Shown here piece by piece: positions 40,219 through 52,330 of a DNA stretch of 64,000 nucleotides. Below the pieces are notes generated by a model that made no database searches, was not told the origin of the DNA, and saw nothing but the letters and a program-made list of their open reading frames with translations. Positions within the stretch are counted from its first letter, which is position 1, and each line of letters starts with the position of its first letter. A program made the translations under genes and the position numbers. This DNA comes from Cirrosporium novae-zelandiae (lineage: Eukaryota), in contig JAPETS010000013.1 in NCBI GenBank assembly GCA_026023565.1, forward strand, positions 186,001-250,000. The letters run 5' to 3'.

Positions 40219-42187
40219 TTTTTTTGGTTTTCTACTCTATAGGATTTTATTCGAGGAATCAGGCGCATGGGTTTTTTTTTCAATCCTACTTCTGGTGTTG
40301 GGGATGTGCATGCGGACGTTTTGTTTGGGTTGGGTTCCGTTGGGCAAACCTCATGGCAAAACACGAGGAGCTTTTTCTTCTTCTCTTTTTTAAACCTAAA
40401 GAAGGCATTTCCAGGGAGCAATTCTCGGACGTGTAGGTAGGTCGGTTGGTTGGTTGGCTGGTTGGTATCAAAACCTTGAGAGAGAAGATATCGAGGACAG
40501 GCAGGCAGGAAGACTGGCAGGCAGAGACACAAAGAACAATAAATGCAAAACCCCTTCCCTCATGGGGGTTTTCTCATACGTGCAGTTATTGTATTGCACT
40601 GTACCTACCTACCATATCCAACATATATTTAGATACCCATCAAACCCATCAAACCCATCACCGTCACCAAAACTAAAACCAAAACCACTAATCAGTCAAT
40701 TAATCAATCAATCAATTAAGCAGTCACCCCCAGACCGATAATGTAATATAATGTAATTAATTGATGTATTATAATGAAAAGGTATCAACCCGAACTAACT
40801 ACCTAGGTACTATACCAAGGTAACTGAAATTCTAAAAGCATGTTAGTGGTTGTGGATGGGTATGGATGGGTATAATGATGTGTTTTTGTTCTTATTCTTA
40901 TTCTCGCTCTTGTTCCTGTTCCTGTTCCTATTCTTGTTGGTCTTGGTTGAGATGATTACTGTTTTTTTTTTCCCTTTCTTTTGTCTTTGGTTCTAGTTTT
41001 GGTTTTATTTCTAGTTCTAACTGTATATATCTTTTTTTTGGTGTGTTTTCGCCCATGAATTAATTAGGTGACGGAGAAGAAAATAGTAATGACGAAAAAA
41101 AAAATGGAGGAAGAAGATTTGGGTTCAGGTTTGGATTGTTCGATTACCTATTACTCATAGCTATAACTATTCCCCTTCTCATTTATCTTCACCACGATCT
41201 GCAATCCTTCAAACCCCAACGCGACAACCATCCCATCATCCCATCATCCCATACCAGTTCGAGGTGGAGAAAATGATGATAGTGGTGGTGGAGGTGGAGG
41301 GGGTATGAGAATGCAACGGAAAGGAGAAAGTATAGCGGAAAGAGGGAAAAGGGATTTTAGGGTTATGGAGTTATGAGAATAAGATTAAGGGTTATATAGT
41401 TATAGTGATAGGATTATAGGGGAGGTAGGTTTGATTGGTTGGTTGATTAGTTGGTTGGTATCAAAATCTTGAGACAAAGAGAGAATATATCGAGGATAGG
41501 CACAGGCAAACAAAGCAAAATAAATGTTAAAACCCCTTCCTCGTGGGGTTTTCCAATACATACGTATAGACTATTGTATTTTATAGCCTTGCTTGCCTCT
41601 CTCTACCTGTTCCTATATTAGGATCTAGTCTATACAGTACGATCCATTACCAAGACCAGTACCTCGGTTAACCCCTTTAAATTGCACTTTCATTTCAAGT
41701 TGAAATGAAAAAAGACTTGTCCCTTACAATTACTGTCCATCATTATTTTACAGCCCGCAAACCACAGATCCCAACGCCTCTCAATACGCAATTGATTAGC
41801 TCTTCTGGTAAGTAGTCGCGACAGGAATGAGAAAACGCCAGATGGATTTGATTATGAGGTGTTATCAAACAAATGTTAAGAGATATGTCCGCACACAACG
41901 AGAAATTAGAAATCTTGAGAATATAACGAGAGTTGCTCTCAAACACAATGGCCGCAAAGCCTTCAACCCCTATTCCTCCGAATCCTTTCCTACAAACCCC
42001 GCAAATACCTATAATCCCCACGGAAGCAGAATCTTCCAATGTGGAGGTAAGAGATTCCCCTCGACATATCCTTAAATACAAAAGTACCTTGGTTGTTGGA
42101 CATCACTTCTTGGACCTCAGCTAACCAAGGCCCATCCTCGATGTCAGCTTTCTTGAACGTGATACAAGAGTTCTCGTTCACCACCAT

Positions 42188-43149
42188 CTATGGCTTGGCT
42201 AGTTTGTTACCAAAGAAAGCGTTCACATCAATGCCTTCAGCTACCCCAACAATTCCCATACCGCTCTGCTTAGCATTGACGTTGCTGATGTCCTGAGTCA
42301 AGTCCGTATTTTTATGTCCCATGTTGATGCTACCGACTAGCAGCTGACCATGGTCACTCATATCAATTTGCCTAATATTTTGTTTCGTCTGGATACGGTG
42401 GATATCCGACAAGAGCCCCTCTAACACCTTTCGAGAATTGCAAAGCCCAGTACGCTGATCTTTAAGTTCCTCTGCTATTTCTGATGGCTCCTTAGCTTGC
42501 TCGTCAACCTCCTTCAATCTCATATTTACTTCTGTAGTCTGTTTATTCGTCTCTTCAATGTCCTTTTTGAGATTACTCTTTTTTGTCAATAAGATGTTTC
42601 TGATATCTTCTGTAATCATGTTCGAGGAAGCGGTATTAAGCCTTTGGGGCACAACGTTAATATAACTTTTTCTTCTAACTGAATTTATTGGTTCCCAGAA
42701 TAGGTTTGCGCATACAAAGTTGCAGTAATAACTGCTGAGTTGACGGTACTCTTGCACGTATTAAGCTGCCCACTCAGTACTTTGATATCAGGCTCTGAGA
42801 ACAATCCTACTCGTACCCGGTCCCGCCAGTGGATCTGGCCATCTGCAGAGTGCTTCATGCATTTTGTGAGTTTAGTCTGAATTTTTTCGCATACTCCTTT
42901 GCAACTGTTAATAACATGGCCTAAGTCAGTTTTGGTATCGTGATTTAGTGTTTCAAATTCTGGCCCTTGTATTGCTGTATCCAAAGTTGCAAAGATCTTC
43001 TCAACCGCCAAGACATCTTCCTTAAGGTCTCTTATCATTTCTGGTGCCCCTTTAATAGCCTGGATATTCTCACGTAGTGCTCTAATGCTTTGCAAGGCAG
43101 GACCTGCAATGCCAATGGCGCCGGCGGTAATACTAAACGGATCTGCCAT
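42188..43149 (-). CDS. HeLo-like (HELL / Helo_like_N) effector with C-terminal two-repeat HET-s-related amyloid motif, about 295 aa
   Basis: N-terminus MADPFSITAGAIGIAG..APEMIRDL is typical of fungal STAND N-terminal/HeLo-like domains. One intron 42642-42715 (GTATGC..ATTAAC..AAG) joins the two ORFs in frame. C-terminal 17-aa pseudo-repeats QNIRQIDMSDHGQLLVG and QDISNVNAKQSGMGIVG, then aromatic tail DVNAFFG. Confidence 0.82.
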
Positions 43150-43865
43150 GATTGTGGTGGCCGGAGGCGTGCAGTGACGAAAAGGATGGATGGATATTAA
43201 ATATAGGCCTTAGTTATAGATATTGATCTTTGGGAGAAGAGGGGTATATTTCACAACCGTGCGTTCAAGCTCATGGCTAAAATTGGGATCAAATTTCCTC
43301 GAAGTCCATGCTGTACCATATGTGATTATATATGAGGTAATGTGTTAAAGGTCAAAGTAGATGGGTATTCATAGAGCTGTCGAGGGAAGATATGTTGACT
43401 GATTGTTGATGGTTTACCTAGGTATCTAGTTGGGAGATGAAGGGACTTATGTATACCCAGGAGACAACTATTTCAAGTCCTCCATACTTCAAGATTTCAA
43501 CTTGCAAGGTTGTTTCTGCAGTACACTACTATAAGGTGGGGTCTCCTGATCCTCTAGCAGTCCCTCTAGCAGTCGCTACGGCAATCAATGAGCTCCTTCC
43601 TCTCAATTAGTTCCTTTAATATTGACCTACGAGAGGTAAGCTGAGCTTTAGCTCTATCAAGAAAACCACCAAGACTTCGAATGATTGGTGCTATAGACGC
43701 CAGCTATCTTCAAACCCTGCTGTATAGGCCCTAAATCATATATCCAAACACGGTACTCAACTCGGTCTGCGTCTATCCATGCTCTGAACTACCTTGCCAT
43801 TTCAAAAAAAAAAAAACTCGCAACTTTTGCCAAAGTTCTTTACAGCTTTAATCGATCATGTTGCA

Positions 43866-45275
43866 ATGAGCTCGACAGGTATTAATCAGAAAATATCAAA
43901 TATTAAAGCAAGCGATGGCTCGCGGTTGTTTGTAGGAAATAACACAACCAATATCGTAAATCAAAGTAAGTAACGTCTATTTCGGCAACTTGTTAGAGCC
44001 TAGCCTAACTTTACTATGGATGGAGACGCTAGAGACCTGCTCCAGCTGCTTCCTTCCGCTCCTCGGGCGGCGTTTAATGCTTCGGGAAAAGACGACGACC
44101 CTCTTTGCCTTCCTAATACTCGAGTGGATCTTCTCAGGCAGATAAGGACATGGGCTGATGGAGATGATAAGAAGTATATCTTTTAGTTAAACGGTATTGC
44201 GGGCACTGGAAAATCCACCATAGCTCGTACGATTGCCCGTGAATACTACGACAAGAAATACCTTGGGGGAAGTTTCTTTTTCTCTAGAAGTGAAAAAGAT
44301 GTTAGTCATGCCGGCAACTTTGTTGGTAGTATTGCTGTGCAGCTAGCCAGATTTCCAGTTCTTAAGGATGTGATTTCCGATGCAATATCAAACCACAATG
44401 GAGTCGTCGACATGATCCTTCTTGATCAATGGAAAATTTTTGTTCTCGAGCCGCTGTCCAAGTTAGAAATCGATTCGGCATGGCTGATTATCGTGATCGA
44501 TGCTTTAGATGAATGTGAGAACAAGAGCGACATTTGACAAGTTCTTAAACTTTTGGCTAGCGTTCGAGACTTACAAACTATTCGTTTTAAAGTCTTAATA
44601 ACGAGCAGACCTGAAACATCTATCTGATTTGGCTTCTCACAAGTTGAAAAATCCGACCGTCAAGATTGTGCTCTTCACGACATATCTCGGGATTATGTGA
44701 ACCAAGATATTTTTACCTTCCTAGAAAATAAATTCGAAATGATTAGAGAGAAGTATCAGATTGGTTTAGATTGGCCAACCAAACATGATATAAGGCGTTT
44801 GGTCGATAAAGCTGCAGGTTTATTTATATGGGCCGCAACTGCTTGGCGGTATATCGACGAAGGCGACCAACGATTTGCTCGAAAACGATTATCTGATATC
44901 ATCCAAGACTATGGCTCTATCACTAAATCGGAAATCGAACTCAACAAGATATACATCAAAGTTCTTGAGAATCCTGTTAGTCCCCTTTTTGATAAACAGG
45001 AGAAGCGTCTTTGTTACACAGCCCAAAGAGAAATTCTTGGAACCATTATTAACCTATATTCACCACTCTCTGTTTCCTCTCTTGCTAGATTACTGCAAAT
45101 GCCGATAGAAAATATCAATAGGGCGTTAGCAGGCCTCCATTCCGTTTTGAATATACCAGAGGATTTAGACCGTCCAATCTGTCTATATCATCCTTCATTC
45201 CGTGACTTCCTGTTTGACAAAAAACGATGCAGTGATTTACACCTAGTAGACTAGAATGAGGCACATGCAACTTGA
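43866..45275 (+). pseudogene. NACHT-type fungal NLR (HET-E/NWD2-like) with N-terminal amyloid motif, nonsense-disrupted and truncated before any sensor repeats
   Basis: Exon 1 MSSTGINQKISNIKASDGSRLFVGNNTTNIVNQ, intron from 43966 (GTAAGT..CCTAAC). Then 'AAFN..CLPNTRVDLL..I..W', Walker A 'GIAGTGKST', 'LGGSFFFSR', Walker B 'IVIDALDEC', 'LITSRPE', 'AAGLFIWAAT', 'HPSFRDFL'. In-frame stops at 44184, 44535, 44625 and 45252. Confidence 0.88.
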
Positions 45276-45562
45276 ATCTTCTTCCCCCCTTCTCTCTCTT
45301 CCCACCCCCCCACCCCCCCAGTGTTTATTAGCTTTTATAAAACCCTTCTCTCCAACTCCAATCTTCACTCCTGTAACCCTCCCCAAACCCCCAAAGCCCC
45401 CCCACATAAACCCTTCAACCTCCCAATCCTATCCATTTATCCATTCCATTCCTACCTCTATGGATAGGATGGAAATATAATATAAATACCTAGGTAAGAC
45501 GGAACCCCCCCCTCCCCTCCCCTCTCCCTAGGTGACCCTAATATCCATATTAATAATAATAA

Positions 45563-45692
45563 CCCTCAGCCAAAGAAACAAACTCTCCTTCTTCTTCTTT
45601 TTGTCATTCACTTTCCCACCATAAATCCCTCAGCCAAAGAAACAAACTCTCCTTCTTCTTTTTGTCATTCACTTTCCCACCATAAATCCCTC
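45563..45692 (+). repeat. Tandem duplication of a 61-64 bp unit
   Basis: ccctcagccaaagaaacaaactctccttcttc(ttc)tttttgtcattcactttcccaccataaat occurs twice back to back (starts 45563 and 45627). Confidence 0.9.
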
Positions 45693-46832
45693 CACACGAT
45701 CTACAATCCATGATTTCTCAATCCCCCTCAAACTTCAAACTTTAGATTTAAATCTTTAACACGAATAATATCACAGCACGGACAAATTATATCAACCCCG
45801 AACCAGTTCGAGTGAGGGGAAAAAAAAAAAAAAAAAAGGTGGCGGTGTCACAAAGGAAGGAAGAGTAGAGCACTAAGATGAGGCTCTAGGCCTGCGGACC
45901 GAAGGCAGGCGGAACGTAGATGGGAATGTGGCGGCGCTACGTAGCGCCGATAAAAGTAACGCATTACAAATAGAATAGGGATTTTATATAGAAAAAAAAA
46001 AAGAAACTGGGAAAGGCCAGCTTTCAGTCTTGTATTATATTGGTATACTACTATTAAGATACTACTACGTTACGCGCAAGCAACGCACCTGTACCGCTAC
46101 CCACACTATCGGAGCCCAATCCTTGACAATAACCTAGAGCCTGGTAGATGAATAGATATCGATGAAACCCTTTGATTTGATAATATGTGCAAATAAAAAA
46201 AAATAGGTCTGGGGGAATTAAAGTACGAGGAGGGGGGCTGTGGTTAAATAGGTCAGTCATCACCTGTAAATATTATAATCAACAGTCAACTAAAGGGGCA
46301 AACTGGGGGGAGGAAGGGAGGCAAGCTTTCAAAAACTATTCCCCCCTCTCTAAAAAAGTACCAAGTACATCTAGCTGTCCTCTTCCTCATCTACACATCC
46401 ACGGAAAATAAAATGTAGACGAAGAAAATAATAATAAATAATAAATAATAATAATAATAATAAATGTGTGTATTTCACCGAAAAAACAAACGATTCGTTC
46501 ACCCCCCCCTCCTCCTAACCCCCTTCCCCCACGACGCCCATTTATATTAAGCAAATATCAACCAAGCCCAAAAGTTCCTGGTATCGCGCGCAAAGGCATT
46601 AATGATTATTAGCAAGGCCCATCCATGGTTCAAAAAAAATAAAAAAAACCCTTACACCTCAATGCACGTATGCATGCTTCCTGACAATTTAGTAACGCCG
46701 TATCCATCTTGGCGCCGAGCAGAACAATAATACAAAAAAAAAAAAACATGAAGAGCAATGGAAGGAGGAAAAATAAAAAATAGAGGGTTGGAAGTCTCAG
46801 GCTTCCTATCCTACCTTGAACGGACTCTTCCC

Positions 46833-48712
46833 TTAGCCCATGCGCGGTCCTACTATCCCGCTATTCATATTTCTTGTCATTTTATCTGCCTTTTCCCTAC
46901 TTGGGGTCTGTTCTCCTGGCTTGGCCATATGATTAGCCACTTGAACAACACTCAATACAGATTTCTTTGCCTCCTCCAAACCTCCTAGTTGCGCGCCTAA
47001 TAGTTTCTTCGCTACTTCCTCTACCCCCGCACCATCCTCCCTCAACCAATCCACACCAAAACATCTCCCAACAAGCCTCACCGTCGTCTCGTCAGCAGGT
47101 GCGAAATGAGCACTTCTGCTTCCTGAAAGCATTTGAAGAAGTCGTAGAATTTCATCCCGTTTGTAGTGAGGGGGGTAACGGAGTTGGGTGTGTGCTAGTA
47201 GCGGATGAAAGACGCGGAGGTATGTGTGTCTTAGGGATGCGGCTTCTTCGGGGAGGTCGAGTAGATTACGAATCATGACATCGACGAGAACATGTAGGTC
47301 GTTTGTGTAGAAGTATTCATAGGTTTGACGGTTGGTGAATAAAAGGTATAGGAGTTTGAGGATAAGAAGTTGAAGAGAGGTTTCGCCTAGGAGGTGGTTA
47401 GTGGAACCAATAAGGAAATGGTAATAATGGTAGGGTCACTACGTACTCTCGCGGTTAAGAAGTATAATAATGTTTTCGCCAAAGGTCTTGTATTGTAAAC
47501 CATGGTAGGAAAGTACCTTGATAACCTTATTCGTTAACTGAATGGATGGATTTTGTCTAGGTCCTGGATCATGCGCTGCAACCATGTATTGCTCATTCAA
47601 GACCAACTGCAAGTAATTAGTATCTTTCTTTGCAAAATTACCAAAGGGATTCCTACCAATACTCTTATAACGGGGTAGTGATAAGGATCATCTACATCAT
47701 CAGAAAGCTCCTCAATTGTTTCGAATAATGAACATATGAACCCATCTTCGATTAAAGCTGTTCCCGCGAAGTTAGTATATCTCTAGCATCCTGTTATTCG
47801 GCCACCAATATCCCTAGAAACGTACATAAATCGTCAATGTGTATCCTCTGAATTCTAGACATTTCGTAGAACAATTCCAACAGCAGCCGATTCAACCCAT
47901 CATCATCATCATCTTTCTGTGACTGTATCAATTCTAATAGTCTGGGAAAGGCCCCTTCCTGATTCATCATCTCGAAAGTATCTTCATTTTGGCGGCCGTC
48001 CGAGAGGAGAAAGGAGACAACGAGGTGAAGAGTTGCGGGGTCGTCTTCCTATTTGCCCACCGAGTCAGCATTTCCGTATGTAAATGGCTTGAATTTTGAA
48101 TCTTGGAACCACAAACCTGTAAGAGTCCATATATGATCTGTCGTCTTACGTAGTCTTTGTGGGCGCAGAAAAGTGTTGACTGCAATAGCTTGTAGGAGCA
48201 CTTCGCAACGTCATATTCAGAAGGCAAATATTCCCCTGTCCGTTCCAAAAAATGTTAACCTCGTCACTTTCGAGTTATCCGAATAAATGTGGTAATGACC
48301 TTTGTATTTTGTAGTGAAGCTTAGGTATGACCGTAGAGCATTATCAATAAGGGCATGCGATTGACAGTTGGCGGAGACAATGTCATCGATTTCTAATATT
48401 GAGAATGTCAGCTTGCGGACTCGAGTGACGATCAGCTTGTGGTAATGTCTTGCATGCTACTGCCACTCAGATTGACAACTTCTTGACCGCGACCTCCGAG
48501 GTTCCTCCAGCTTTGTTAATTTCGAGTCAACATGCAGTCTTCGTCAGAGTTCTCCTACAGTCCCGTCGAGTCCCTGGAATGGCATTGTCAAGATGGTCGA
48601 ATCCAAGCGGCAGCAGCGTAACGAAAAAAAACGTTAGTACAGCGGGGAAAGAGCACGCACCATCCCAAAATTGCTGCTCATTGTCGAGGGTATAAGAAAC
48701 TTCAAACTCCAT
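46833..48712 (-). CDS. LDB17: Ldb17/Dip1 (SPIN90/WISH family Arp2/3 activator, DUF2013)
   Basis: [24 protein letters not shown], '[12 protein letters not shown]', 'VLNEQYMVA', 'FGENIILLLNRE', '[21 protein letters not shown]...[13 protein letters not shown]'. Multi-exon, intron 1 at 48393-48660. Confidence 0.85.
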
Positions 48713-49221: not shown

Positions 49222-52200
49222 TCAAAACAAAGATGGGGCAGGTCTTTTAAACGGATGTGCTTCCGTATTCCTATACCAGCCAGTCAATACGGCATTTTCT
49301 TATTGAAGTCCCAGGAAAAAACTTACAAAACATAATCGTCCAAGCTCATGACACTCGGGTCGCTGAACAAAAGATAAAAGTATTTTAGCGTCTCCGCTAA
49401 CCAGAAAGACTCCATCTCATCTTTGAATATAGGTGCCTGGCTCGTAACGTCTTTGATTGCTGAATTCCCAAATTCCGTTCTCGTGTAGTTCTGAATGGCC
49501 GTGAACATCTGCCAGCCCTTTTCGCGCCAGTACTCGTCACCGGTGGTTCGGTATAAGATGAAAACCGATTCAATAGCTTCGGGTCTATTTGAAAAGTTAA
49601 TAGGGTTGCTATCTCAACAGGTGGTATGATTGGTTACCTTAAAATATACTTAGGACTCCATATGTTAACAAACCCTGGAGGAAGTCTCTCCTCCTCAATC
49701 TTTGCCTGAACAAACTGCTCGTGTGTAGGGATGGGCTTGGGTGTAAAGGCTGGTTTTATTGGGTTGGTTTTTCTGCCACTACGTTGCCCATCACCATCCT
49801 TTTCAACCACAGGTGCTGCTGCCGGGCTTCCGGTAGAGGGAAGATCATACCCTCTATTGTAAACATCATCACCAACTTGCCTCTTTTTGATATTACTATC
49901 AAGTTGGTTCCTGTCGGGTTCCGCAAGTTTAGCCCTGGGAGGAGGAGCCTGAGGAAGTGTCTGAGCAGCAGATTCATCATCCTCATCATCCTCTTGGTGT
50001 GCTTCTAGAAGCTTTTGCTGGAGTGCTGCAGCTTCGTCTTCTCGCAGTTGACGCCACGGATCGAGTATTTCATGCCACTTGGTTTCATTCCACGGACATT
50101 TGGCCTGATCTTCACAAGGGACAGCAATAAACCCTTCAGGCATTATGCCTGTTGTCGTAGCTTCATAAGCCCATACGCAGCCATCAGTAAGACCTTTTGC
50201 GATGTCCATGTCTTCTGCTAAACCGAATATCTTAGCTCCAAGAGCAAACATTCCGCCAGCAAAGCAGGTAAGATGTTGGCCCTCAGGCTTAAGCTTTAAC
50301 CGGTGATCTCCATCTGTCTTGATGGATCCAGAGAAAAGAACCTTTCTATCCTCGTTGGGGATCATGGCCCTAAAAATTAAATACTTCCGGACAGTCTCCA
50401 TAGAATATTCGTACATGGTCCTATATTGATCGTTCACGCCACCTAGAAGCAAATACTCTTTCGGAAGGTATTCGTAGACAGAATCAGACATACCGCCAAG
50501 GGTGAATTCATCCAAAGTGGTTTTCGGAGGAGACCCTAGGCCTTGAGGTTCGCAAATTTCGCTACTAAGTGGAAGATCTGCTGATTTGAATCGCTCGGAG
50601 GATATTTTTGGCTCTCCGGGTGACTTAGGGGCCTTTGCAGATCGTGCGTCGGGGGAAGTCCCGTTGGTTGAAGTCTCCTGGGATTGTGACTCGTCCGATA
50701 CCGAGAGATCAGTTAACTGTCTCTTGTCAAGGGACGAAGATTGACTTGTCCCTTGCTCCGATGCTGCAGAGTCTCCCCAACCTTGAATTCGACCTTTCTT
50801 GATACTAGCACCGGTGGAAGATCCTTCAAGAGACGAATCTTTCTTGACAGTGTCAGTCCATGGAGTGGTATCGTCGTCATCGCTCTCCTCTTTCGAAGAT
50901 TTCGCTGAAGATGAATCTGAGTTTCCTCCCATCTGCTTACTCTGCCAATGTATCGAATCTTCAAGCTGGCTCTGTGGTCCGTTTAATAATGCATGCTCAA
51001 CGGATGTCGTAGACTGCTGAGAAAGCTTCTTACATCCCGATGCATCAACCGATACAGGCCACATCCCGGCCAGTTTCGTATTGTTCTGCCATATCTCAAA
51101 CTCGTTTGTAATCCGAGCAATTGCATCATAATACTTGGCATCCCTGGTGAGTTGGGCCAATCTGGTAAATTCCATGGATAGGGATCCAATCTCTGCAAGC
51201 ACAACACGGGTACTTGCACGATGAGGCTGAGACATGAACGTTGGCATCCAACGATAATAGGTTACTGGCATGCGGTTCGGAGTATCAAATGCTCCCATAA
51301 GGATCTCTCCGAGTTCGATGGCTTTGTCCAGAAGAGCTCGGTATCTTTGCCCGCTAATATCATAAGCTGCAAGTAAACCGCCCAAATATCTTATAACAGT
51401 TTCGAATAGTGGAATATCCTTCCTCGGGCTTGTAGTGAAATCGATCTTTTCAACTGCATTTACGGCCTCTTCAAATTCGGATTTTTTGCCCATAATCCAT
51501 AATGTATCAAGTGTATCCACCAAAGTCGCAGCCCAACCGCAGAATGGATCTCTGAAATCCCCAGAGACAGGCCTCAATTCATCATGGAGCCAAGCAAGTT
51601 CTTTGTAACCAGACCAAGCGTGGTCAAAGGCCTCCTCGACAGCAGCCAGTCTTCGTTGTCTATCGATCTTTGAATTTGAAGACTCATCCTTGAAATTATA
51701 TTGAATCTTAGGAATCTTCTTGACCTTTCCTGAAGGGATAGGTATAACGGATTCGGAGGGAAGGGGGAAATGCTCTGGGAATTTCGTCCAATGCATCACT
51801 GGTTGTGTAGAAGGGAAGATATTTGGTTCCTTCCTTCCTTGTCCTTGTTCTGATAACTCTTCATCTTCTGTATGTGTACCACTATGTGGATACGGAACCG
51901 TTCCTGCGTCAGAATCTTCCCATGGCTGGTCGGCCAATGTAGCCAAGGACACCGACGAAGATTTCGCGGTGCTTAAACTCGAACTCGTCTCCGAGCTCGC
52001 AATGGTTTTGACAATTGTGCTGGTCGGTGTAACGGCGAGGAAGTCTTCCAGGGTAGATGTAGTCAAGGGTTGACGTTTACTTGTCACAGTAGACGAAAAC
52101 TCTTCAGTATCCAGTTCAGCAGGCTTTAGACCTGAGCCATGTGTTTGGACCGGAACTGATAAAGGAGACGTTGTAATAACTGCATCCGGTCTTCCCCCAT

Positions 52201-52330
52201 AGTTCTTCAAACTTTCGACACTGATATTTGAAGACTCGAAGCTTGAACCACCAATCGAAAAGTAATATATGCCAAAAATCGAAAGAATGGCGAAGACGAG
52301 GAAGATGCGGTAGCGTCTAAGCCGCAGCAT
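49222..52330 (-). CDS. Class I alpha-1,2-mannosidase (GH47), type II membrane protein with long low-complexity inserts
   Basis: N-terminal TM anchor, '[12 protein letters not shown]', '[12 protein letters not shown]', '[14 protein letters not shown]', 'DSVYEYLPK', 'YILRPEAIES', '[15 protein letters not shown]', 'NTEAHPF'. Two 3' introns. Confidence 0.92.

Follow-up and report, generated by a model that had tools for sequence, protein, structure and literature searches.

An HRAM2-like HELL effector gene divergently paired with a truncated NACHT receptor pseudogene in an assembly of Cirrosporium novae-zelandiae

Gene layout and the HELL effector

The window, the whole 64,000-nucleotide stretch of Cirrosporium novae-zelandiae contig JAPETS010000013.1 that was analyzed, contains two divergent genes with start codons at 43149 on the minus strand (an effector) and at 43866 on the plus strand (an NLR). 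The 716 bp of sequence between the two ATGs (43150..43865) presumably forms a shared promoter region. The Podospora genes het-S and nwd2 have the same divergent arrangement, with 0.6 kb between them (PMC4344463). The gene orientation, the 716-bp spacer, a 100-nt first exon in the NLR gene, an intron in the effector gene and the three repeats R0, R1 and R2 were all found where the initial annotation had placed them.

The effector gene was modeled as an 888-nt coding sequence that specifies 295 amino acids and has no internal stop. Exon 1 (42716..43149, minus strand; 144 codons plus 2 nt) encodes a HeLo-like (HELL) domain, identified with PF17111 and by full-length alignment to the N termini of six homologues. 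It is followed by a predicted 74-nt intron (42642..42715, minus strand; GTATGC...TAAC...AAAG), removal of which restores one open coding sequence. Exon 2 (42188..42641, minus strand), examined with the repeat profile and AlphaFold2, encodes a helical hairpin, R1, an 8-residue loop, R2, an aromatic tail and the stop codon. Judged from the sequence, the gene is probably spliced as modeled. The junction (...ITATLLNTASS...) aligns without a gap against homologues, and the product is collinear with six full-length homologues of 291–307 aa from Penicillium and Aspergillus (33–39% identity).

The prediction that the effector N terminus is HeLo-like was borne out by PF17111, which matched exon 1 over residues 2–143 with an E value of 2.7e-19 and a score of 69.8 bits, well above the gathering threshold of 27.2; among the 30 family members scanned, all six full-length members matched it as well. 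PF14479, the HeLo family of the HET-S type, was not among the listed exon-1 matches at E ≤ 10, and 2wvo, the HET-s N-terminal domain, aligned to the full-length profile over 17 residues only (E = 0.27). The AlphaFold2 model of exon 1 is a helical bundle (pLDDT 71.9), and a fold search with this model returned generic helical bundles only. At one site of the HELL domain, the effector has C where six of six full-length homologues have W.

HRAM repeats in both genes

R1 (TKQNIRQIDMSDHGQLLVGSI; 42326..42388) and R2 (LTQDISNVNAKQSGMGIVGVA; 42239..42301) are 21-residue HRAM repeats encoded on the minus strand within the last 71 residues of the effector. They are separated by the 8-residue loop NMGHKNTD, and R2 is followed by the aromatic tail EGIDVNAFFGNKLAKP (...NAFFGNK...). 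The NLR gene contributes a single repeat, R0 (INQKISNIKASDGSRLFVGNN; 43881..43943, plus strand), at residues 6–26; NLR-borne HRAMs mostly lie at positions 5–9 (PMC9815663).

Homology among the three repeats was assessed with an HMM trained on the R1 and R2 copies of 29 homologues, with the repeats of the window itself excluded. It was searched against 2,509 six-frame stop-to-stop ORFs (minimum length 15 aa; 104,080 residues in total) covering the whole window. Effector exon 2 was recovered at E = 2.2e-12, with 23.8 bits for R1 and 23.6 bits for R2, and R0 at E = 9.1e-8 with 28.1 bits; the best unrelated ORF among the 2,509 reached E = 0.65 and 7.2 bits. With an R1-only profile, R1 scored 28.5 bits and R0 26.6 bits, while an R2-only profile gave 35.8 bits for R2 and 15.2 bits for R0, placing R0 nearer R1 than R2. 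Identities over the 21 residues are 8 for R0/R1, 7 for R0/R2 and 5 for R1/R2. The pattern Q-x-I-x-x-[IV]-x-[AM]-x3-[GS]-x3-V-G matched R0, R1 and R2 and nothing else in the six frames of the window.

Effectors with HRAMs have been described as HeLo, HeLo-like or SesA proteins of fewer than 310 aa whose last 80 or so residues contain a pair of ~21-residue pseudo-repeats, with G19, hydrophobic residues at positions 5, 8, 10, 16 and 18, a loop of 6–18 residues and an aromatic/glycine tail past r2 (PMC4518210). In the window, each of the three repeats carries G19, the G19 of R2 being invariant across 30 of 30 aligned sequences, and the five hydrophobic positions are filled in R0 and R1; position 16 of R2 is G, a family-wide feature of that repeat. 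Residues 16/18 are thus L/V, L/V and G/V in R0, R1 and R2. All three repeats have Q at position 3, as the initial annotation had seen, but the Q-led motif it described as a variant is not new, having been published in 2015 as the hallmark of the HRAM2 class (Daskalov, Dyrka & Saupe, PMC4518210). Position 3 is N in HRAM1 and H in HRAM3, and a core Q is found at position 16 in HRAM5 and at position 18 in HRAM4 (PMC4518210). Within HRAM2, the r0 of the NLR tends to resemble r1 more than r2 (PMC4518210). By these published text criteria (PMC4518210), the repeats of the locus are HRAM2-like.

The repeat family comprised 52 cluster representatives at E ≤ 1e-3, 16 of them at E ≤ 1e-10. Both repeats were kept in all 29 aligned homologues; among 23 matches outside the profile set, 12 had two repeats, 9 had one and 2 had none. 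A search with a 7-sequence alignment, the 30-sequence alignment being too diverse, yielded one related metagenome locus, with a subtilase gene upstream of the effector relative and the contig end 400 bp downstream. The HET-s_218-289 model gave no match: PF11558 did not match the effector C terminus or R0 at E ≤ 10, and it matched 0 of 30 family members at E ≤ 1. Among published HRAM effectors, only 38 of 155 match PF11558 (PMC4518210).

Against the PDB, the family profile aligned over R1–R2 with 6eka_A, a solved P. anserina structure (E = 0.001, 22.3 bits; E = 0.017 with the full-length profile), its sole sequence match outside coiled coils. Comparison of the aligned chain with the published description suggests that 6eka_A is HELLF(209–277). 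The AlphaFold2 model of exon 2 (pLDDT 84.1) has helices at residues 11–48, 54–85 and 139–146 and four strands on the repeats, at 87–94, 99–105, 116–123 and 128–134 (pLDDT 80–88). Foldseek with this C-terminal model found nothing at E ≤ 0.001, with HET-s 2rnm at rank 13 (E = 0.98, TMt 0.38); the fold matches were dominated by the helical hairpin, and a second look (VIA) spanned residues 4–86 only. The ESM Atlas gave no usable match.

A decayed NACHT receptor

Exon 1 of the NLR gene (43866..43965, plus strand; 100 nt) encodes the N-terminal 33 residues including R0. A predicted 60-nt intron (43966..44025; GTAAGT...CTAAC...GGAG) containing two in-frame stops separates it from the NACHT region, to which it is probably spliced, as the sequence signals suggest; a second possible acceptor, also in frame, is at 44034. 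The NACHT/NOD remnant (44026..45254, plus strand) matched PF24883 with 93.6 bits and PF05729 with 32.6 bits against 26.7, and includes a Walker A motif (GIAGTGKST, 44193–44219) and IVIDALDEC (Walker B). Its best homologues are NACHT-WD40 NLRs, with 56% identity over 99% of its length. The effector and NLR genes accordingly constitute the pair claimed by the initial annotation, a HeLo-like effector and a NACHT NLR with a common HET-s-related motif, as judged by PF17111 (69.8 bits), NACHT/NPHP3_N and the repeat profile.

The NACHT reading frame is interrupted by three in-frame stops: a TAG just before Walker A (44184..44186), where 119 of 120 homologues have W; a TGA after Walker B (44535..44537), where the homologues have R (88/120), Q (21/120) or another residue (11/120); and a TGA in the 'SRPE..I' stretch (44625..44627), where 116 of 120 have R. 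All three nonsense changes can be read as single C:G>T:A substitutions. The frame ends at 45254, right behind the NOD region, with no repeat domain after it, while each of the 120 homologues extends beyond this point by 87 residues or more (median 411). In tblastn searches with three homologues, matches were confined to 44034..45269. No WD40 coding sequence was found anywhere in the window. Where the WD40 sensor part would be expected (45255..46830), there is non-coding, low-complexity DNA with no NLR-like ORF and no dispersed repeat, the sole repeat being a 64-bp tandem duplication at 45563–45692; no dispersed repeat or transposable element was found at the truncation point within the window. 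The next gene, SPIN90/Ldb17, lies on the minus strand from 46836. In the assembly, the NACHT receptor gene is a truncated pseudogene.

Three other accounts of the stops were considered. Introns hiding them were rejected because each stop falls within continuous homology and aligns to a conserved residue. A neighboring 898-aa ORF is open in the standard code and 100% identical to a deposited protein, and an alternative genetic code was therefore rejected. For RIP, a candidate source of the stops, the indices (TpA/ApT 0.80, composite index 1.19) were not raised relative to the rest of the window. The stops and the truncation had been overlooked in the initial annotation.

The repeat type of the locus was detected at E ≤ 0.01 in none of the 120 closest NACHT homologues. 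When only the R0 region was used as a query against long proteins, two candidates emerged, neither of which scored. By eye, many of the 43 NACHT homologues with short N termini bear other HRAM-like or PP-like motifs.

Could the module nevertheless be fully functional, with the stops and the missing C terminus arising from assembly or consensus errors in a metagenome-assembled genome, or representing a strain-specific allele? R0 is perfectly preserved and outscores both R1 and R2 on the family profile, the remaining NACHT region is as well conserved as the identity given above indicates, and the assembly is the sole source for the stops and the truncation. In P. anserina, an NLR gene that is a pseudogene in one strain is sometimes intact in another (PMC13449251). 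Against this stand the nonsense codons, which number three and all fall on conserved residues, and the abrupt end of homology at 45269, beyond which 1.5 kb of low-complexity DNA separates the NLR from the next conserved gene. The neighboring 898-aa ORF, open and 100% identical to the deposited protein, also speaks against it. Substitution errors like those needed to create the NACHT stops are also unusual in assemblies. We consider a functional module unlikely, and the stops, as read from the assembly, are probably real in the organism.

Interpretation and comparison with known systems

The domain identities, repeat homology and gene order, together with the stops and the truncation, are established by the comparisons above. 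Their best explanation, in which we have good though not complete confidence, is a pair formed by an HRAM2-like HELL effector and a divergent NWD-type NACHT NLR, in which the receptor is dead and the effector an orphan. Since the receptor is a truncated pseudogene, the locus represents a known family in an unremarkable way and in partial decay; since the NACHT gene is dead, the module cannot work as written; and with the receptor dead and the effector ORF whole, the effector is left an orphan. The cell-death module of the initial annotation therefore stands as a type of gene pair but not as a working system in this assembly, given three NACHT stops and nothing past the NOD.

In working relatives (het-S/nwd2 and hellf/fnt1), ligand-induced oligomerization of the NLR gathers copies of r0, which fold into a β-solenoid rung and template r1/r2 of the effector; this templating in turn frees the N-terminal helix of the HeLo/HELL domain and leads to membrane damage. 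By homology, the effector predicted here may form amyloid, be templated by an r0 and be toxic. As an orphan, it may be decaying, or its activation may depend entirely on a different NLR or a prion seed that acts in trans and has a compatible motif.

How much the open effector frame says about constraint is limited. At the NLR rate of 3 stops per ~443 codons, about 2 would be expected in 295 codons, and by our arithmetic the probability of none is ~0.14, so that the open frame is weak evidence of constraint. The whole locus could then be a relic, with an effector that is neither expressed nor functional and has stayed open by chance. Such a reading accords with this probability, with an effector expression that is predicted only and with the replacement of the conserved W by C. 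The effector has nonetheless kept canonical splice signals, its start codon, the N-terminal helix, both repeats and the aromatic tail, and we regard a complete relic as quite improbable.

Only one dead partner NLR has been studied well, namely nwd2, which all het-s strains carry as a pseudogene (PMC4344463), as do all wild het-s isolates (PMC4344463, PMC13449251); a change in the HeLo domain of those strains abolished toxicity (PMC4344463). A similar exaptation of the window's effector, following or accompanying the loss of its receptor, as a self-propagating prion or allorecognition element, no longer an NLR-controlled executioner, would fit the loss of the receptor and the C in the HELL domain, but the W-to-C contrast is a sequence comparison with six homologues, the locus is known from a single allele and simple decay of a dispensable module accounts for the same facts, which makes this reading very improbable. 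There is a similarly slim chance that the het-s route has been taken independently a second time here, with the receptor lost because the effector was exapted and with a HELL W-to-C change that may disable the toxin. The fungus would then belong to a little-studied class, Xylobotryomycetes, as the label of a neighboring protein with 100% identity indicates.

The decayed pair that we favor adds to a mechanism already known and opens no new one. In fungi, amyloid templating from an NLR to a pore-forming effector is well documented as a mechanism of immunity and cell death, with parallels in mammalian RHIM and ASC signaling, and the present type of locus, in which a HeLo-like pore former and a NACHT receptor have a common HET-s-related amyloid motif, has already been described. 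The locus increases the number of HRAM2-type pairs by one and apparently comes from a fungal class for which such systems had not previously been discussed. It offers a clean case of receptor decay next to an intact effector and a data point for the turnover of NLR/effector pairs. It also helps annotation, since the short R0 exon escapes standard gene calling, which would get the NLR wrong as well.

With het-S/nwd2 of P. anserina (HRAM1), the locus shares divergent genes about 0.6–0.7 kb apart, a NACHT NLR bearing one repeat at its N terminus, a two-repeat effector and a receptor that is a pseudogene, there in some haplotypes. It differs in having a HeLo-like domain where het-S has HeLo (PF14479), Q in place of N at position 3 and no match to PF11558; moreover, nwd2 was broken by a transposon scar, whereas the NLR of the window was broken by point nonsense changes and 3′ loss. 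With hellf/fnt1 of P. anserina (HRAM5), it shares a HELL domain, two HRAM repeats and an adjacent NLR (bioRxiv 10.1101/2020.07.06.188508), but HELLF has a third strand with QxFG and QG sub-motifs, whereas the window's repeats have QxI with LLVG, GIVG or LFVG and no core Q. The resemblance to HRAM2 pairs extends to an effector of fewer than 310 aa, two 21-residue repeats, Q3, G19, the hydrophobic core pattern, an 8-residue loop, an aromatic tail and an adjacent NLR with an r1-like r0; an adjacent NLR with one r0 copy was reported for 98 of 155 effectors (PMC4518210). The window departs from these pairs in the G16 of R2, in the lack of the preferred R/K at position 15 in R1 and R2 and in an NLR that is a truncated pseudogene.

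A divergent HeLo-like effector and NACHT gene pair

On the minus strand, a HeLo-like (HELL) effector begins at the ATG at 43149 and comprises exon 1 (43149..42716), a predicted 74-nt intron (GTATGC...TAAC...AAAG) and exon 2 (42641..42188). Joined by these coordinates, the exons give a coding sequence of 888 nt and 295 codons with no internal stop. The start codon of the NLR lies 716 bp away on the divergent strand, at 43866, on an exon of 100 nt directly followed by a predicted 60-nt intron (GTAAGT...CTAAC...GGAG) with two stops inside; a NACHT-type reading frame continues from 44026 (+). This layout of genes, spacer, 100-nt exon, intron and repeats had been described in the initial annotation, and the window sequence agrees with it. 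An ATG-led ORF of 65 codons (MVVNENSCITFKK...) at 41993-42187 (−) begins on the base directly after the effector stop codon, terminates at a GT that is a possible splice donor and has no Pfam match.

Effector exon 1 matched PF17111 with 69.8 bits (cut-off 27.2); this family is presently named PigL_N, and its accession is the one used for HeLo-like domains (PMC9815663). In the same Pfam scan SesA fell under its cut-off and HeLo was not among the families listed. The spliced effector aligned as a single segment to six full-length homologues from four Penicillium and two Aspergillus species (291-307 aa, 33-39% identity), from residue 1-5 to residue 288-292, and this collinearity supports the intron model. 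AlphaFold2 modelled exon 1 as a helical bundle (pLDDT 71.9) and exon 2 (pLDDT 84.1) as a long helical hairpin leading to four strands and a short helix on an aromatic tail. The strands, at exon 2 residues 87-94, 99-105, 116-123 and 128-134, coincide exactly with the two C-terminal repeats, R1 (42326..42388, −) and R2 (42239..42301, −), and pLDDT across this block is 80-88.

Conservation and class of the repeats

A HMMER scan of 1.84 billion proteins with effector exon 2 returned 52 cluster representatives (16 at E ≤ 1e-10), 29 of which were aligned with the window sequence. Both repeats are kept in all 29 aligned homologues, with two invariant glycines, so the pattern proposed initially is conserved. 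Among the 23 matches outside the profile, 12 have two repeat matches, nine have one and two have none. A repeat profile was built from the alignment columns covering R1 and R2 in the 29 homologues only, leaving out the window's own sequence, and was searched against the six-frame translation of the window, which comprises 2,509 stop-to-stop ORFs of 15 aa or more. Effector exon 2 scored E 2.2e-12 and the ORF carrying R0, the single N-terminal NLR repeat (43881..43943, +), scored E 9.1e-8 (28.1 bits); the next-best ORF reached E 0.65 (7.2 bits). On the joint profile R0 outscores both effector repeats, and the regular expression of the initial annotation matches only the R0, R1 and R2 sites in the window. 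The repeats are a real observation and exceed chance. In a metagenome contig (L001, 3550-4560), an effector relative also retains both repeats in exon 2; a subtilase gene on the other strand is its neighbour upstream, where the ORF list showed no obvious HELL-domain ORF.

In the text of the 2015 catalogue, HET-s-related amyloid motifs (HRAMs) are defined by two 21-residue repeats that have G at 19 and hydrophobic residues at 5, 8, 10, 16 and 18 and in which R/K is preferred at 15; the loop spans 6-18 residues, and the tail is of the aromatic or glycine type (Daskalov, Dyrka and Saupe 2015, PMC4518210). The same text separates subclasses by position 3 (N, HRAM1; Q, HRAM2; H, HRAM3) or, for HRAM4 and HRAM5, by a Q in the core at 18 and 16, respectively. 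In this numbering R0 reads I1 N2 Q3 K4 I5 S6 N7 I8 K9 A10 S11 D12 G13 S14 R15 L16 F17 V18 G19 N20 N21, with R1 and R2 in the same register, an R1-R2 loop of eight residues and the tail EGIDVNAFFGNKLAKP after R2. The three repeats depart from the definition in two places: R2 has G at 16, a family-wide feature, and R stands at 15 in R0 only. Q3 without a core Q would place the motif in HRAM2, as judged from the catalogue's text criteria; the 'Q-led variant' of the initial annotation therefore belongs to a class already named there. R0 scored 26.6 bits against an R1-only profile and 15.2 bits against an R2-only profile, in line with the trend for HRAM2 described in that text, in which r0 is closer to r1.

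The Pfam HET-s_218-289 model, a comparison suggested at the outset, matched none of the 30 family members, which rules out HRAM1 membership. HRAM membership itself is unaffected, because only 38 of 155 HRAM proteins match that model according to the catalogue's text (PMC4518210). Against PDB sequences, the family profile matched 6eka_A over R1-loop-R2 (E 0.001, 22.3 bits; E 0.017 with the full-length profile). This 78-residue chain from P. anserina chromosome 3 is probably the solved HELLF amyloid, since the sub-motifs QxFG and QG occur in its aligned part and its beginning agrees with the cloning primer given for HELLF(209-277) in bioRxiv 10.1101/2020.07.06.188508. At the level of sequence, the match is independent support for HRAM-type repeats. 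Foldseek with the exon 2 model gave nothing at E ≤ 0.001, the helical hairpin filling the match lists; the sole beta match among them was to the HET-s fibril 2rnm (rank 13, E 0.98).

Decay of the NLR

The frame from 44026 matched NPHP3_N (93.6 bits) and NACHT (32.6 bits), and its best relatives are Pezizomycotina NACHT-WD40 NLRs, with identity of up to 56% over 99% of the query. Three in-frame stops interrupt it on the plus strand: TAG at 44184, where 119 of 120 homologues have W; TGA at 44535, with R in 88/120 and Q in 21; and TGA at 44625, with R in 116/120 (residues from pairwise alignments with the 120 homologues listed). Introns hiding these stops were ruled out, as each stop is inside continuous homology. 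Each could have arisen by a single C:G>T:A change (TGG>TAG, CGA>TGA); RIP indices are not raised.

All 120 homologues listed run at least 87 residues (median 411) past the end of the window's frame, and tblastn of the whole window with three long homologues matched only 44034..45269. The 1.5 kb after the frame (45255-46830) occupies the place expected for the sensor domain and is C-rich and A-rich low-complexity DNA with a 64-bp tandem duplication (45563-45692), in which no coding remnant, transposon-like ORF or dispersed repeat was found. Beyond it, on the strand opposite the NLR, are a gene for a SPIN90/Ldb17 leucine-rich-domain protein (PF09431 by Pfam; 46836-47687, −) and a GH47 alpha-1,2-mannosidase gene (49637-52330, −) whose product shares 100% identity with a protein that NCBI labels MAG Cirrosporium novae-zelandiae, class Xylobotryomycetes. 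Because of the three stops at conserved sites, the missing 3′ part and the lack of a coding remnant, the NLR as it reads in this single, apparently metagenome-assembled genome is a truncated pseudogene. The initial annotation had overlooked both the stops and the truncation.

No R0-type repeat occurs among the 120 nearest NACHT relatives, all from other species, which have other N-terminal motifs instead; using just the R0 region as query gave no match. The N-terminal extension is shorter than 70 residues in 43 of the 120 closest NACHT homologues listed (P0007, P0025, P0083, P0123 and others). On visual inspection, other amyloid-like motifs (HRAM1/3-like ...GSVHIG..., ...AQLGD... and PP-like N.G.Q) are present in many of these, and the NACHT clade thus appears to swap signalling motifs.

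Present state of the module and known systems

By homology with het-S/nwd2 (PMC4344463) and hellf/fnt1 (bioRxiv 10.1101/2020.07.06.188508), the ancestral module would have acted through NLR oligomerisation, after which r0 would fold and template r1/r2 and the HELL domain would release its N-terminal helix; we infer every step at this locus from that analogy. As predicted from its present sequence, the receptor cannot drive amyloid templating. The effector ORF is intact, which is weak evidence of constraint because, at the NLR nonsense rate, ~2 stops would be expected in it and the probability of none is ~0.14 by our arithmetic. Most likely, the effector would be a decaying orphan, or one that a different NLR bearing a compatible motif could trigger in trans.

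Effector residue 97 (42859-42861, −; ...TKCMKH..., HELL domain) is C, versus W in 6/6 full-length homologues. A single HeLo-domain change decides HET-S/HET-s toxicity, so residue 97 is worth testing. In het-s the effector was exapted into a prion and its receptor nwd2 is a pseudogene (PMC4344463, PMC13449251). A similar exaptation might apply here, for which the substitution at residue 97 is of note, an outcome we consider highly improbable beside that of an orphan or trans-triggered effector.

HeLo-like effectors with HRAM repeats beside r0-bearing NLRs were catalogued in 2015, with adjacent NLRs in 98 of 155 cases by the catalogue's text (PMC4518210), and again in 2022 (PMC9815663). The locus adds one example to these known pairs, from an unusual lineage and with a decayed receptor; it is chiefly useful for annotation, given its short R0 exon and pseudogenised NLR, and as an illustration of how NLR/effector pairs turn over. 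For this decay het-s/nwd2 is a direct precedent, the receptor being a pseudogene in both: according to the same two papers on that system (PMC4344463, PMC13449251), every wild het-s isolate carries nwd2 as a pseudogene, and related species show the gene at differing stages of decay.
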